From a virus (taxonomy: Duplodnaviria; Caudoviricetes): a stretch of 38,399 bases of DNA. The stretch lies in IMG/VR virus record IMGVR_UViG_3300027412_000057, positions 1 through 38,399 of that record. One strand, given 5' to 3'. The position numbers and the translations under genes are program-made. Position 1 is the first letter of the stretch. Every line of letters starts with the position of its first letter. The notes under the pieces were generated by a model. It had not been told where the DNA came from. It ran no database searches and saw only the letters and a list, made by a program, of their open reading frames with translations. This document shows, piece by piece, positions 2,329 to 21,329 of the stretch.

Positions 2329-3522
2329 CTAGAACGTCCCGCCGTCAATAGCCGCACTCGACGACAAGGCATCGGTGATGCCGTAGCCCGCCAATGTCGT
2401 GGGTTTGCCGGTGATGTTCGCCCAGGCGGGCGTGACGGCAACCGAACCCGCAGCAGTCAGCCGGCCTTTAGCATCCACGGTAAACGTCGGTATTGCCGTG
2501 CCTGATCCATACGCCCCTGCCACCACGGCGGTGTTGGCCAGCGTCATGATAATAGAGATATTCGCGGAGCCGTCGAATGTTGCGGAACCGGTTATATCTC
2601 CGCTATGACCGATACTGCGTGCTGTTTGCAGCACGGTTGCTGAGCCCGCATTGCCGGTAATGGTGTTGATGGTCACCGCGCCGGTTGATCCATTAACGCT
2701 AGACACGGCCTCGGTATTGTCGACTTTGTCCCATACAGCGCCGTTGCTGACAATCCAGTCGCCGATCATCCAGTCGCTGATGGTATCCACCACGGTGGCA
2801 CCTGCCACGCTGACCTTGTAGTAATAGCCTTTGTTTCCGGATGCGGCGAGCGGTATCGTGGGCGTATTGGTGCTGGCGTTCCATACACCCTGGTAATTTA
2901 ACCCGCCCACCGTGGCTGCGGGCAGCTGCGCAGACGGCACTTTGCCGTCAGCCCCCAGAGATGCCACGCCGCTGGCTGCGCCAACTTGACTGGTGGATAC
3001 TGCGCCCACTTGCGCTGCCGTCGGGTACGCATGGACGTGGTCTGATCTTGCAGCTGTGGTTGCTACACCGGCAGAGCCTGATGCAGCCAACGCGGCACCG
3101 GCAGTTGCGCCCAGTTGCAGATAATCGGTGATGCCGTAACCTGCCATCGTGACAGGTTTTCCGGTCGTCAACTTGCTCCAGTCGAGCGCAGGAATGTCGG
3201 AAGCGGCCAGCGACCCGCCAACTGTCACGCGCCCCTTGGCATCCACCGTAACTTTTGCATAAGTGCCTGCGGTAACGCCCGACGCAGCAAGCGTCAGTGC
3301 AATCCCTGCGGCCAGCGTGCCTGTCCCCGTTGCATCTCCTGTCATTGTGATGGAGTCGGCTTTGCGGGCAAAGGTGCCTGGTCCGGCGATGGCCTTAACT
3401 ACCGCGCCGGTTTCTCCGATAAACAGGTTCTGCGACGACTCTGACCATGCGAGTTCACCCACGGCCAGCGCGGGCGGTGTGGCCGTTGTCGCGCTGCGTT
3501 TTATTTGTATTATGTTTGGCAT
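2329..3522 (-). CDS. Tail fibre protein
   Basis: N-terminal IQIKRS...P.L..GELA; repeated TVDAKGR(V/L)T and KP.T.AGYGITD fibre motifs; ends IDGGTF; AGGAG RBS. Confidence 0.85.
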   Translation of the reverse strand: MPNIIQIKRSATTATPPALAVGELAWSESSQNLFIGETGAVVKAIAGPGTFARKADSITMTGDATGTGTLAAGIALTLAASGVTAGTYAKVTVDAKGRVTVGGSLAASDIPALDWSKLTTGKPVTMAGYGITDYLQLGATAGAALAASGSAGVATTAARSDHVHAYPTAAQVGAVSTSQVGAASGVASLGADGKVPSAQLPAATVGGLNYQGVWNASTNTPTIPLAASGNKGYYYKVSVAGATVVDTISDWMIGDWIVSNGAVWDKVDNTEAVSSVNGSTGAVTINTITGNAGSATVLQTARSIGHSGDITGSATFDGSANISIIMTLANTAVVAGAYGSGTAIPTFTVDAKGRLTAAGSVAVTPAWANITGKPTTLAGYGITDALSSSAAIDGGTF

Positions 3523-18311: not shown

Positions 18312-18363
18312 GGTTGCCATTGTGGCAACCGGGGGAAGGGGCGTTAAGGCGGAACAGGTTCCG
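18312..18363 (-). promoter_or_regulatory. Putative Mor/C-activated late promoter upstream of protease (PI-like)
   Basis: CGGAACCTGTTCCG (18350-18363), 25 nt, -10 CACAAT (18319-18324), 7 nt, ATG. Confidence 0.8.
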
Positions 18364-18364
18364 T

Positions 18365-18420
18365 CACTCAGTAACAGGAACTTCAGTTCCGTTTTTGCGT
18401 GGGACTGCCCTTGCGGCAGG
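18365..18420. repeat. 56-nt structured element, copy B
   Basis: CACTCAGTAACA-GGAACTTCAGTTCC-GTTTTTGCGTGGG-ACTGCC-CTTGC-GGCAGG. Confidence 0.9.
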
Positions 18421-18485
18421 TGAGGATGCAGCTATCTGGAACTTTTTTAGGCTACCATAAAATTTATAAATATAGGAAATGTGAA

Positions 18486-19187
18486 TTATGTAGTGGTTGG
18501 TTTTTTGGCCGCCTGTTTTTCAAGCCGCACCTTGAACTCATCATAACGATCAGCGAGGTCATAGATATATTCAATAATCGCATGTACAAATATCTGAAGA
18601 TCGCGAGCATCCTCGCGCGAGATACTGATGTCTTCAGGATGCGCTGCCAGATCTCGGAATGCTTTCAGCTGCTGACTCCAGTCGTAAAGTCGCTGATCGA
18701 TGACCTGCATGTCTTTCAGTTTTTTGATACCCGCCCCAAGCATGATCTTCTTGGGTGCTTTCATGAAATCTGGAGGCGTGGCGACATTAATCACATCCCG
18801 ACAAAGTGCTTCCAACGCTCGGCCTAGCATAACGCAAGCCGCAATATTTGCCCCTGCTTGTAATGATCGCTCGGCTTCGCTTAATGAGTCTCTAACGACC
18901 TTGGGTATTCTCGCGCTATAGAATGTTTTAGCTGGCAGGGGATAGACCCGTATAACATCGCCCCACTGATCTTCGTAAGCAGTTACTCCCTCGAAACCAA
19001 TCTGCTCAGTCGATCCGACAAGAATGGCTTTGCAGACTGGACAGTTTCCGACCAATACCCTAAGCACTTCAGGAAGCTCGCCGGCATCTTCATAGTCGGC
19101 TTGTTCTGCTCGCCCCGTTTCAGCTGCAGCCACTTTTACTTTGCAGTAAGGGCAATCGATAATGAATGAGGGCTGTGGATTAGTCAT
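18486..19187 (-). CDS. DUF4145/HEPN-like protein with N-terminal CxxC pairs (moron)
   Basis: CPYC/CPVC; EA..S...GA..AA.VM.GRALE.LC; RDLAAH (Rx4H); lower GC; inserted between G and I. Confidence 0.8.
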   Translation of the reverse strand: MTNPQPSFIIDCPYCKVKVAAAETGRAEQADYEDAGELPEVLRVLVGNCPVCKAILVGSTEQIGFEGVTAYEDQWGDVIRVYPLPAKTFYSARIPKVVRDSLSEAERSLQAGANIAACVMLGRALEALCRDVINVATPPDFMKAPKKIMLGAGIKKLKDMQVIDQRLYDWSQQLKAFRDLAAHPEDISISREDARDLQIFVHAIIEYIYDLADRYDEFKVRLEKQAAKKPTTT

Positions 19188-19433
19188 TTTTATTCCCTAT
19201 CGCCAGAAGTTCAGCAAGTTTTTAACTCAATGGTGAGATTGTACTCCGTGAATACATTAGAAACCGCCTAACAAGGCCGTTAACCCACCGTTAAAAATCA
19301 TCCGTGATTATTTTTCATACCATCGCCGCACTGGAATGCGCTAGGCCGCTTAAAACGGCTCTGAGCGGGTTTCGCTCAAAACAACGAGCGCGTAGCGCGA
19401 CTATGTTTTTAGGCTAAGACCCTTGCGATCTTG

Positions 19434-19910
19434 TTATCCAGCGACACGACGCAGGTAGTCGCCGACCAGGCCGAGGATGTTTTCCGACGCCTCGGCTTGC
19501 AGGTTGCCCTGCGCATCGATCGGCAGGAAGGGACGGGCGGCGATAACTTTATTGGGAATCATGCTGCGCGGACTGGTTACCCCACCTAGCTGCTGCATAG
19601 CCGCATATTTTTTATTACTGCCGACCGTAGCGCTCATCGCATCATGACTGGAGCCGATAGAGGATGCCAACCCACCGGCGCTGACTTGCAACATCATGCC
19701 AGGCCATGTGCCGCGCTTGGTACGCATCGCAATCGTAGAGGGCTTTAACCCTAGCCACTTCGGACGACCCTGTGCGGCAAAATTCTTCTCAGTCTGCCGC
19801 TCCAGCTCCTGCGCGATCATGCTCATCACCGGCGACATGTTGTGCGCGGTAGCGGCCATCCGGTCAAGCATGGACATCACCGCTTTATCGTCTATCTTGA
19901 TTTCAAACAC
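19434..19910 (-). CDS. Virion morphogenesis protein (Mu G/gp31)
   Basis: F..QGRP.W..LKPST, VGSN.KYAA..Q.GG, I.ARPFL. Confidence 0.92.
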   Translation of the reverse strand: MFEIKIDDKAVMSMLDRMAATAHNMSPVMSMIAQELERQTEKNFAAQGRPKWLGLKPSTIAMRTKRGTWPGMMLQVSAGGLASSIGSSHDAMSATVGSNKKYAAMQQLGGVTSPRSMIPNKVIAARPFLPIDAQGNLQAEASENILGLVGDYLRRVAG

Positions 19911-19926
19911 CGCAACCCCCTATAAT
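19897..19926 (+). promoter_or_regulatory. Sigma70-like promoter antisense to late operon
   Basis: TTGATT (19897-19902), 18 nt, TATAAT (19921-19926). Confidence 0.65.
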
Positions 19927-19932
19927 GCTTGC

Positions 19933-20028
19933 ACGCCCATGATGAAAGCTGGAAATTAGACGGCGAGCCAGCGGAAGAGTACCTGCCCAGCAGGTGATGG
20001 TGAACAGCCGGTCACCCATCATGGAGCG
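19933..20028 (+). ncRNA. Putative cloverleaf (tRNA-like) small RNA
   Basis: Closing stem CCATGATG/CATCATGG with three internal hairpins (GCTGG/CCAGC, ACCTGC/GCAGGT, GGTGA/TCACC) directly after the promoter. Confidence 0.6.
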
Positions 20029-21329
20029 CCCATCTTGATGTAGCGATCTGAATTAAAGCGCTTCGCTTCTACCTTGTAGGCATTCACCAGAACATCCATT
20101 TTTCCGAGTTTCTTTACGCTGAAATCAAGCCTGGCGGGAACATAAATAACCCGGCCATCCTCCGCAGGATAGGTGTAAACAATATCTCGCTCTTTTGTGT
20201 CCCAATAAACAGCATTCGGCTTGGCGACGATGGCAGGAAGCGACTGATACTCAGTTGGTGTGAGCGCAATATTCCCGCCCTTATGTTTGAAGCTATCTGC
20301 ATGCAATAATCTTTTCTCCGGAAGCGCCAGTACACGCGCCGCATCCACGCCGCCATTATGACCCTTCGCAAAGTCGGCAATTTCCTCAGATACAAAACCT
20401 ACCACCTGCGCTTCATGACCTGGTGCGCGTTTGGTCAATGCCGTGCTGACCCAGCTGGCAAACACCTGGTGACGTAATTCTGAATTATTGATTGCCTGCA
20501 CGGCCTGCACGCGGACAGCACGATCTTTCACCGCACTGATCTTGCGCATCACCTCGATATCGGTGCCGAATGCGGCACGACCCGGGTTATAACTCCACCC
20601 CGCATCCGGCGCGAACAACTTATCTTGCCCATCCACCTTGATGCGCAACGCCTTACCCGGCACCGTGCTGCCATCCTTCAGGGTGATATTGTGATCTATC
20701 AGTCGCTCATCAGACGATTCAGCGTGGATACCATCGCGCTGCGCCTCGAATTCGCTGATCGCACTCACACGGCAGCGGCAGTTAAATCCGTTGGGCGGAT
20801 AGAGTGCGCCCCACGCAGGGTCATCATAGCGAAACACCCGGCCATTCATCGCGCGGTGCGTCGGGCGGGTGCGTCCATCCATCACTGCGACGTACTGCCA
20901 GTAGGGATGCGTGCCGACATTTTCCATCATGCGTTTATAGCGCCCGGCCATGTAGGCGGTTTGCAGGTTGGTCTGGTAGATGGTCTTGAGACGGCGCGGG
21001 CTGCCCAGCTGTACGGTGCTGATTTCACCAGTCAGCGTATTGACGTGTTCGGTCTTACCCCACCAACCTTTGGCTTGCAGGACAGGCGTTAAACTTTTCT
21101 GGAAATCACGCAGGGTGGTGCCATTGTTTAACGCGTCATCCAGCGCACCGCGAATATCGTTGAGGATGTCGGTATTCATCACCTTGGCCACTGTGAAGGC
21201 ATTGGCGTGTGCCTCTTGCCACAGCTCGCGCCAATCCCAGGTGATGGCATAGCCCTTGGCCTTGAAATATTCGATGGCTTGCTCGGGTGGCAGGCCAAAG
21301 ACGGCTGACAGATTGACAGGATCAGGCAT
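20019..21329 (-). CDS. MuF (gpF) head morphogenesis protein with C-terminal extension, possibly PBECR-type nuclease fold
   Basis: AFTVAK, RRL.TIY.TN..TAY.AGR, V.D.RTRP.H, YPPNGFNCRCRV, PD.GWSYNPG, then ~180 extra aa of lower GC. Confidence 0.9.
   Translation of the reverse strand: MPDPVNLSAVFGLPPEQAIEYFKAKGYAITWDWRELWQEAHANAFTVAKVMNTDILNDIRGALDDALNNGTTLRDFQKSLTPVLQAKGWWGKTEHVNTLTGEISTVQLGSPRRLKTIYQTNLQTAYMAGRYKRMMENVGTHPYWQYVAVMDGRTRPTHRAMNGRVFRYDDPAWGALYPPNGFNCRCRVSAISEFEAQRDGIHAESSDERLIDHNITLKDGSTVPGKALRIKVDGQDKLFAPDAGWSYNPGRAAFGTDIEVMRKISAVKDRAVRVQAVQAINNSELRHQVFASWVSTALTKRAPGHEAQVVGFVSEEIADFAKGHNGGVDAARVLALPEKRLLHADSFKHKGGNIALTPTEYQSLPAIVAKPNAVYWDTKERDIVYTYPAEDGRVIYVPARLDFSVKKLGKMDVLVNAYKVEAKRFNSDRYIKMGAP

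Follow-up and report, generated by a model that had tools for sequence, protein, structure and literature searches.

The gap between the MuF and gpG genes of a Mu-like provirus contains a conserved, covarying gene for a cloverleaf-shaped RNA, which forms part of an unannotated RNA–protein module. The protein component is the C-terminal tail of MuF, predicted to be a BECR-type RNase from sequence profiles and a structural model. Sequence comparison suggests, with an estimated probability of about 0.6, that the RNA binds and neutralises this RNase, so that its gene would confer immunity to a polymorphic toxin of the phage. The window, i.e., the whole analysed stretch of 38,399 nucleotides (IMG/VR record IMGVR_UViG_3300027412_000057), represents a complete Mu-like provirus, with the transposase, Gam, GemA, portal, MuF and gpG genes all on the minus strand. 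The features of the locus, in window coordinates, are as follows.

19434..19910, minus strand: gpG (Phage_tail_S/neck protein), the downstream gene, assigned by profile matches
19897..19902, plus strand: −35-like hexamer TTGATT, within the 5′ end of gpG on the opposite strand, from a promoter scan
19921..19926, plus strand: −10 hexamer TATAAT, from a promoter scan
19934..20028, plus strand: class-2 cloverleaf RNA gene, ~91–95 nt, 5′ end probably near 19933, from the fold and relatives
19937..19944, plus strand: 5′ strand of the closing stem, pairing with 20017–20024, from covariation
19948..19972, plus strand: arm 1, whose 15-nt loop hardly varies, from an alignment of 11 sequences
19981..19995, plus strand: middle arm with a 3-nt loop, not an anticodon loop, from comparison of relatives
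19999..20016, plus strand: 5-bp arm with an 8-nt loop, stacked on the closing stem in the T-arm position, from covariation
20019..21329, minus strand: MuF minor head protein, 436 aa (Phage_Mu_F at residues 57–188, E = 5.7e-29; phrog_220)
20022..20576, minus strand: C-terminal MuF-C/PBECR-type predicted RNase tail, aa 252–436, from profiles and a model
20022..20219, minus strand: MuF tip, aa 371–436, delimited by an identity shift relative to class-1 relatives
20301..20303, minus strand: His343, located in helix 1 of the core and predicted to be catalytic from the alignment and model

The MuF domain (PF04233) is N-terminal, and the position of the gene between the portal and gpG genes corresponds to the phage head module. 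A MuF 98% identical to that of the window is found in a Gallionella metagenome bin. The MuF–gpG gap reported in the initial annotation is indeed 108 bp (19911–20018) according to the gene coordinates. The accompanying claim that it holds no immunity ORF stands in so far as no conserved one exists, but a 39-codon ORF (19903–20022, minus strand) overlaps the MuF stop codon. Its start falls in the closing stem and is present in only two of 11 relatives; hence, the ORF is not conserved as an immunity gene, and its product was rejected as an immunity protein. The 108-bp gap thus lacks the downstream protein immunity ORF of MuF polymorphic toxins. Elsewhere in the vicinity, a DUF4145 gene (18486–19187, minus strand) lies between gpG and a protease gene; the region 18363–19307 is replaced by 1017 different bases in a related contig and looks like a variable cargo slot. 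A short stretch downstream of gpG (19371–19427) is matched by several unrelated contigs and is possibly a repeat element.

The ~95-nt plus-strand cloverleaf proposed from the sequence was recovered by folding, with all of its stems in place and z-scores of about −3.1 to −3.4. The segment 19930–20030 (plus strand) folds at −38 kcal/mol (z = −3.36, equalled by none of 200 shuffles), and 19933–20027 gives z = −3.11 (equalled by one of 200 shuffles) with the cloverleaf as the centroid; the opposite strand gives z = −1.87. The gene is antisense to the late operon, and its closing stem overlaps the MuF stop by 6 nt, in agreement with the overlap proposed in the initial annotation. The arm described as T-arm-like does stack on the closing stem, but its 8-nt loop is not a canonical T-loop. 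The window RNA is not a canonical cloverleaf with an anticodon loop and is recognised neither by ARAGORN nor by Rfam; canonical tRNA features are found in a sister class, referred to below as class 1. The promoter TTGATT-18-TATAAT (19897–19926, plus strand) was verified as a 10/12 match and is the best of four promoter-like sites in 2.5 kb. Taken alone, this match is weak since shuffled sequences average 2.0 such sites. No terminator-like site for the RNA was found in a scan of the locus. RNA-run contigs matching the window derive from relatives at 90–99% identity, and no piece extends across the RNA.

Covariation in homologues, which the initial annotation had named as a check, was found in both RNA classes. 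Class 2, to which the window belongs, comprises 11 sequences collected by pattern scans. In this set, 98% of the cells pair and 10 of 23 pairs change on both sides, including seven of the eight pairs of the closing stem and three of the five in the T-position arm. Arm 1, including its loop, shows almost no variation, and the middle arm varies in length and sequence. A 4-bp loop–loop pairing (19961–19964/20007–20010) is possible in all 11 sequences; it is a prediction only, since no double change occurs. For class 1, 28 sequences were aligned with plain MAFFT, and double-sided changes occur in 17 of the 19 pairs. The covariation score was reached by none of 500 shuffles, a control that ignores relatedness, and a slid-pair control also favours the class-2 structure (≤52% paired). 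Judged from these alignments, the compensatory changes show selection on the RNA fold.

Most RNA-bearing relatives among the loci sampled carry class 1, which features a ~9-bp closing stem, a D-like arm with GG, a variable middle arm and a 5-bp T-arm. The T-loop is of the TTCRANY type in 42 of 43 sequences; middle-arm loops are mostly 3–5 nt long, with a 7-nt anticodon loop in one of 42. A −10-like hexamer (at least 5/6) lies just upstream of 34 of 43 class-1 RNAs vs. 20% in shuffles. Homologues are common, one class-1 RNA being matched in 172 of 5426 complete E. coli genomes. When 151 genomes of the host class were scanned with the class-2 model, only the source genome matched, and a 16-mer viral scan gave 44 matches; among the matches listed, five adjoin a MuF tail and the rest were taken as chance. 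A third recurrent antisense RNA class was observed behind PBECR3-like tails (loci L020, L053, L130, L138, L148, L156, L162 and L167).

The resemblance of class 1 to tRNA raises the question of whether these RNAs are tRNA decoys against host defences (anticodon nucleases, tRNA sensors), or decayed tRNAs, merely linked to MuF. The tRNA model of Rfam picks up class-1 RNAs, with 36 bits in loci L093 and L066, ARAGORN calls a tRNA in two of 60 relative loci, RefSeq labels many of them ‘tRNA-OTHER’, and orphan copies occur near defence genes. Nevertheless, this origin is very improbable: an anticodon loop is absent, the compensatory changes indicate a fold under selection, unrelated RNA sequences occupy the same slot behind MuF in different loci, and the RNA was lost together with one protein residue on eight independent occasions, as described below.

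The expression of a homologue can be traced in E. coli Sakai, whose prophage Sp18 carries a class-1 RNA detected as a covariance-model match. The available start-site data of Sy 2020 (PMC7547250) contain a TEX-enriched site at 5058595 of NC_002695.1 (minus strand; enrichment 14.58), which is the first base of the Sp18 model match, the latter belonging to class 1 and not to the window's class. According to the same part of that source, the culture was uninduced with a lytic subpopulation, and the site is one of seven antisense starts listed for ECs496x–498x. The supplements of Tree 2014 (PMC4104026) and PMC7618764 contain no entry at the Sp18 RNA.

An own promoter, and the location on the opposite strand in every Mu-like locus studied here, would also suit a cis-antisense regulator. 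The RNA is fully complementary to the intercistronic F–G late mRNA, and by pairing with it and causing its decay it could silence leaky toxin expression in the lysogen, a type I-like convergent arrangement. We regard both this function and the type I-like assignment as improbable. Pairing does not require the conserved GG of the D-loop or the identity of the T-loop. The relation of the RNA to the MuF coding sequence varies from −29 to +20 nt and is not conserved, so that the overlap ranges from none to 20 nt; orphan RNAs have no cis target, and a similar RNA, of the skipping-rope type, shares the strand of the PBECR2 gene that it accompanies.

The initial annotation had suggested that the ~180-aa MuF extension is RNase-like, and its assignment to a BECR-type family is supported by profiles, Atlas neighbours and PMC5512222, activity being a prediction. 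Among 50%-cluster representatives, 86 sequences are related to the tail at E ≤ 0.001. The BECR core of the tail spans approximately residues 331–430. The position of His343 is occupied by His in 52 of 82 homologues, and His349 is conserved in 62 of 83. The window tail matches Pfam MuF_C at E = 0.011, below the Pfam cut-off; 16 of 33 alignment members match this profile at E ≤ 0.01, with a best value of 1.5e-9. The Atlas neighbours of the tail are MuF_C, PBECR2 and PBECR3 clusters at 0.92–0.95.

The AF2 model of the tail (pLDDT 94.6) features a helix followed by a 4–5-stranded sheet, as in BECR RNases, and His343 lies within helix 87–93 of the model. The best structural rows (BrnT, CdiA-CT, colicin D and RelE-type toxins) are weak, with Z of 3.4–4.5, as are the five best VIA rows, all BECR toxins or TA toxins (Z 4.0–4.5). 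Foldseek with the tail model against the PDB returned nothing at E ≤ 0.001, and a sequence search of solved structures with the tail gave no match. A single-sequence fold of the core (pLDDT 35) was discarded. The second PBECR site is Asn416 in the window and its near kin, and Thr/Ser in distant kin. In view of the weak structural matches, and since the window combines the His with an Asn in the second position of the site, RNase activity is only predicted.

The available text of Iyer 2017 (PMC5512222) takes a first-helix His together with a Thr/Ser near the C-terminus as the hallmark of PBECRs, and describes the BECR RNase fused to MuF. It calls the domain copy in Mu gp30 inactive and its orthologues probable RNases, and proposes CRISPR or other RNAs as PBECR targets.

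The association between the RNA and the predicted catalytic histidine was studied in loci retrieved with a MuF alignment (the best 80 of 526 viral and the best 80 of 260 genome loci), plus six annotated phage regions, with the class-1 and class-2 covariance models run over 173 sources. In these loci, His-bearing tails are followed by a gap of 90–170 nt that contains an antisense cloverleaf. The comparison comprised 114 tail-bearing loci with a closed frame, after removal of three window copies and one partial locus (L146); two Gly-x5-His variants were counted as His-positive. Among these best-matching loci, the RNA accompanies only His-bearing tails: 85 of 91 carry it, six showing no model match, vs. 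none of 23 loci without His, phage Mu among the latter. Dereplication at 90% left 46 loci with both His and RNA, six with His only, none with RNA only and 14 with neither (14/6/0/14 without training sequences). On a quick tree, His was lost on eight separate branches; well-supported branches gave eight independent pairs, none reversed (sign test, p = 0.008–0.016).

The model-free gap length behaves similarly. The gap measures 88–352 nt in the 47 of 52 His-positive representatives in which gpG was identified, and at most 18 nt in 13 of 14 His-negative ones, the exception being L039 (302 nt, no model match). In phage Mu, F and G overlap and the RNA is absent. Short MuFs without a tail have a gap of at most 20 nt in 18 of 21 cases and an RNA match in none of the 21. 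The initial annotation had proposed to compare the presence of the RNA with that of the extension, and had named the same structure beside extension-less MuF genes, a lack of covariation and a domain unlike nucleases as arguments against its proposal; no outcome of this kind was obtained where computation could address it.

The six His-positive loci without a model match are structured, as judged by eye only, and in one locus (L099) the RNA is degenerate although His is present. The z-scores from fixed-window folding overlap between His-positive (−4.1 to +1.4) and His-negative loci (−1.4 to +0.9). By eye, a structured antisense stretch is also seen behind 12 MuFs with other tails, of which three match PBECR2 above the cut-off and four match PBECR3 weakly. 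No such stretch was seen behind two PBECR2-tailed MuFs (gaps of 14 and −1) or behind peptidase-like MuF tails. At L131 (2392–2901), the MuF tail is of the zinc-peptidase type (Pfam ATLF, E = 1e-9) and no cloverleaf lies downstream.

Besides the single copies, tandem and orphan RNAs were found. The F–G gap of L066 contains three different class-1 RNAs in tandem (2858–3165), one of them 72/77 identical to the RNA of the sister phage L111. Orphan class-2 RNAs adjoin a 14-repeat CRISPR-like array (L213, 1135–1239), lie between PemK/MazF and Gp49-HTH genes (L219, 613–718) or have no adjoining PBECR gene (L217, 1139–1239). Loci L218 and L219 share one contig. A tandem class-1 pair annotated as tRNA-OTHER and tRNA-Tyr (L225, 2381–2579) is located in a 5-kb stretch with RepA helicase, SSB, PerC and Mor genes and no MuF, a satellite-like element with close matches (≥95%) in nine E. 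coli records. The orphan and tandem copies are hints of action in trans.

Compared with six class-1 relatives, the window MuF shows 66–87% identity as far as residue 370 and 39–53% beyond, and the identity of the tip to that of L222, which has a class-2 RNA, is 73–78%. Since tip identity drops relative to class-1 kin and holds relative to class-2 L222, the tip (approximately the last 65 residues) and the RNA seem, on sequence grounds, to be exchanged as one cassette; such co-exchange may also result from linkage alone. Class-2 tails do not form one clade, with three changes on the core tree.

As the gene is kept with His and lost when His is lost, the RNA is likely an RNA-type antidote. The co-loss fits any RNA–enzyme partnership, and together with the covariation it would agree equally well with a cofactor, guide or dedicated substrate, which the PBECR would process or carry; the complex, perhaps packaged in the virion, would act on a target in the host, e.g., a defence RNA. 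Information could be held in the variable middle arm, the available text of PMC5512222 proposes CRISPR or other RNA targeting by PBECRs, and one of the orphans neighbours a CRISPR-like array. Nevertheless, this alternative is rather unlikely, although it is the strongest of those considered: middle-arm loops of mostly 3–5 nt are poor guides, an active RNase would be left unguarded with no protein immunity gene, and the enzyme-less orphans and arrays of tandem variants resemble collected immunity genes.

Neutralisation by an immunity RNA is the simplest reading because a gene for a protein inhibitor is absent, the RNA persists exactly as long as His does and spare copies accumulate in the manner of immunity genes. 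Under this reading, the RNase, produced in quantity as part of a head protein, would need an inhibitor. Colicin D and CdiA BECR domains cut tRNA or other structured RNA, and the MuF RNase would have targets of the same kind. The solved members of the fold include tRNases, and by analogy a tRNA-shaped decoy suits such a fold. The RNA would be produced from its own sigma-70-type promoter and adopt an L-shape, through a D/T-loop elbow in class 1 and the predicted loop–loop pairing in the window's class. It would then occupy the enzyme and present no anticodon loop. MuF is presumably packaged and its RNase delivered with the DNA, as the annotation, PMC5576092 and PMC5512222 suggest. Both the lysogen and the lytic cell would be guarded against their own MuF and against incoming kin. 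Loss of His would make the RNA dispensable and lead to its deletion, as in phage Mu.

To our knowledge, polymorphic toxin immunity has so far been described as protein. A tRNA-mimicking RNA that blocks a virion-linked RNase would join the fields of polymorphic toxins and RNA antitoxins. We give even odds to a broader proposal, in which PBECR RNases as a clan use tRNA-shaped RNA immunity genes, with swappable cassettes of tip and RNA and with orphan arrays in hosts, satellites and rival phages. If true, it would explain what the skipping-rope motif and many prophage ‘tRNA-OTHER’ calls do. With a dead domain and no RNA, phage Mu would explain why the model phage never revealed the system. In the available text of the sources, the questions touched are the role of the MuF-C/PBECR domain (PMC5576092, PMC5512222) and that of skipping-rope-type RNAs (PMC5737381).

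Several known systems can be compared with the module. No described PBECR/MuF–RNA pair was found in the literature searched, with subscription journals and the Weinberg supplement outside the coverage. Class-1 RNAs share with tRNA an acceptor-like stem, the GG of the D-loop, a 5-bp T-arm and the TTCRANY loop; they differ from it in the ~9-bp closing stem, the missing 7-nt anticodon loop and, as a rule, the absence of a free CCA end, and the window's class is devoid of the canonical loops as well.

The skipping-rope, drum and DUF3800 RNAs are tied to nearby proteins, skipping-rope in either orientation, with no function given in the available text of Weinberg 2017 (PMC5737381). The skipping-rope fold (RF02924) is a cloverleaf in which, as in the window RNA, a 5-bp arm stacks on the closing stem. 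Matches were obtained in two of 151 Bacillota genomes and five of 40 viral loci scanned; the drum motif was found in none of 151 genomes. At L226 (1117–1205), a skipping-rope RNA directly follows a MuF–PBECR2 gene, and at L228 (765–955) a tandem pair follows a stand-alone PBECR2 gene, on the same strand in both cases. The histidines of the latter PBECR2 align, weakly, with His343 and His349. The other loci of the seven are L245, a near copy of L228, two that follow ParE (L242 tested) and two orphans. RF02924 gave no match at E ≤ 10 in the window or at E ≤ 5 in 17 loci of our RNAs. Skipping-rope resembles the window RNA in adjoining a PBECR-clan gene, and differs in having terminators and, in the cases seen, lying on the same strand as the gene. 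Because of the like fold and the site behind PBECR2 genes, skipping-rope is probably a Bacillota counterpart of the MuF-tail RNAs.

In type III TA systems (ToxIN, CptIN, TenpIN), upstream RNA repeat arrays on the toxin transcript provide the RNA antitoxin that holds the RNase; there and in AbiF–RNA pairs, the repeats are cut by a MazF-like or HEPN toxin. The module shares with them the predicted restraint of an RNase by a structured RNA antitoxin, and differs in its single downstream cloverleaf on the opposite strand, its own promoter and a BECR toxin on a virion protein. By inference, it would work like a type III antitoxin, but it does not belong to any known type III family.

As in the PBECR/MuF-C proteins of Iyer 2017 (PMC5512222), the window has a predicted BECR RNase on MuF with a first-helix His; it departs from the definition given there in having Asn, not Thr/Ser, at the second site, and the available text makes no mention of an RNA partner. 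In the available text of Jamet 2017 (PMC5576092), 89.4% of 191 MuF polymorphic toxins are followed by a small downstream protein ORF, and the toxicity of the proteobacterial MuF extension Ct_MAD, which is probably the tail domain of the window, is left open. The module agrees with these toxins, as far as that text describes them, in the combination of MuF with a variable C-terminal effector, in its location in the head module of a temperate phage, in the indications that tips have been replaced and in the occurrence of additional or orphan partner genes, whereas the slot behind MuF holds an RNA gene instead of a protein ORF. Hence, the module is best filed as a MuF polymorphic toxin system with an RNA replacing the immunity protein.
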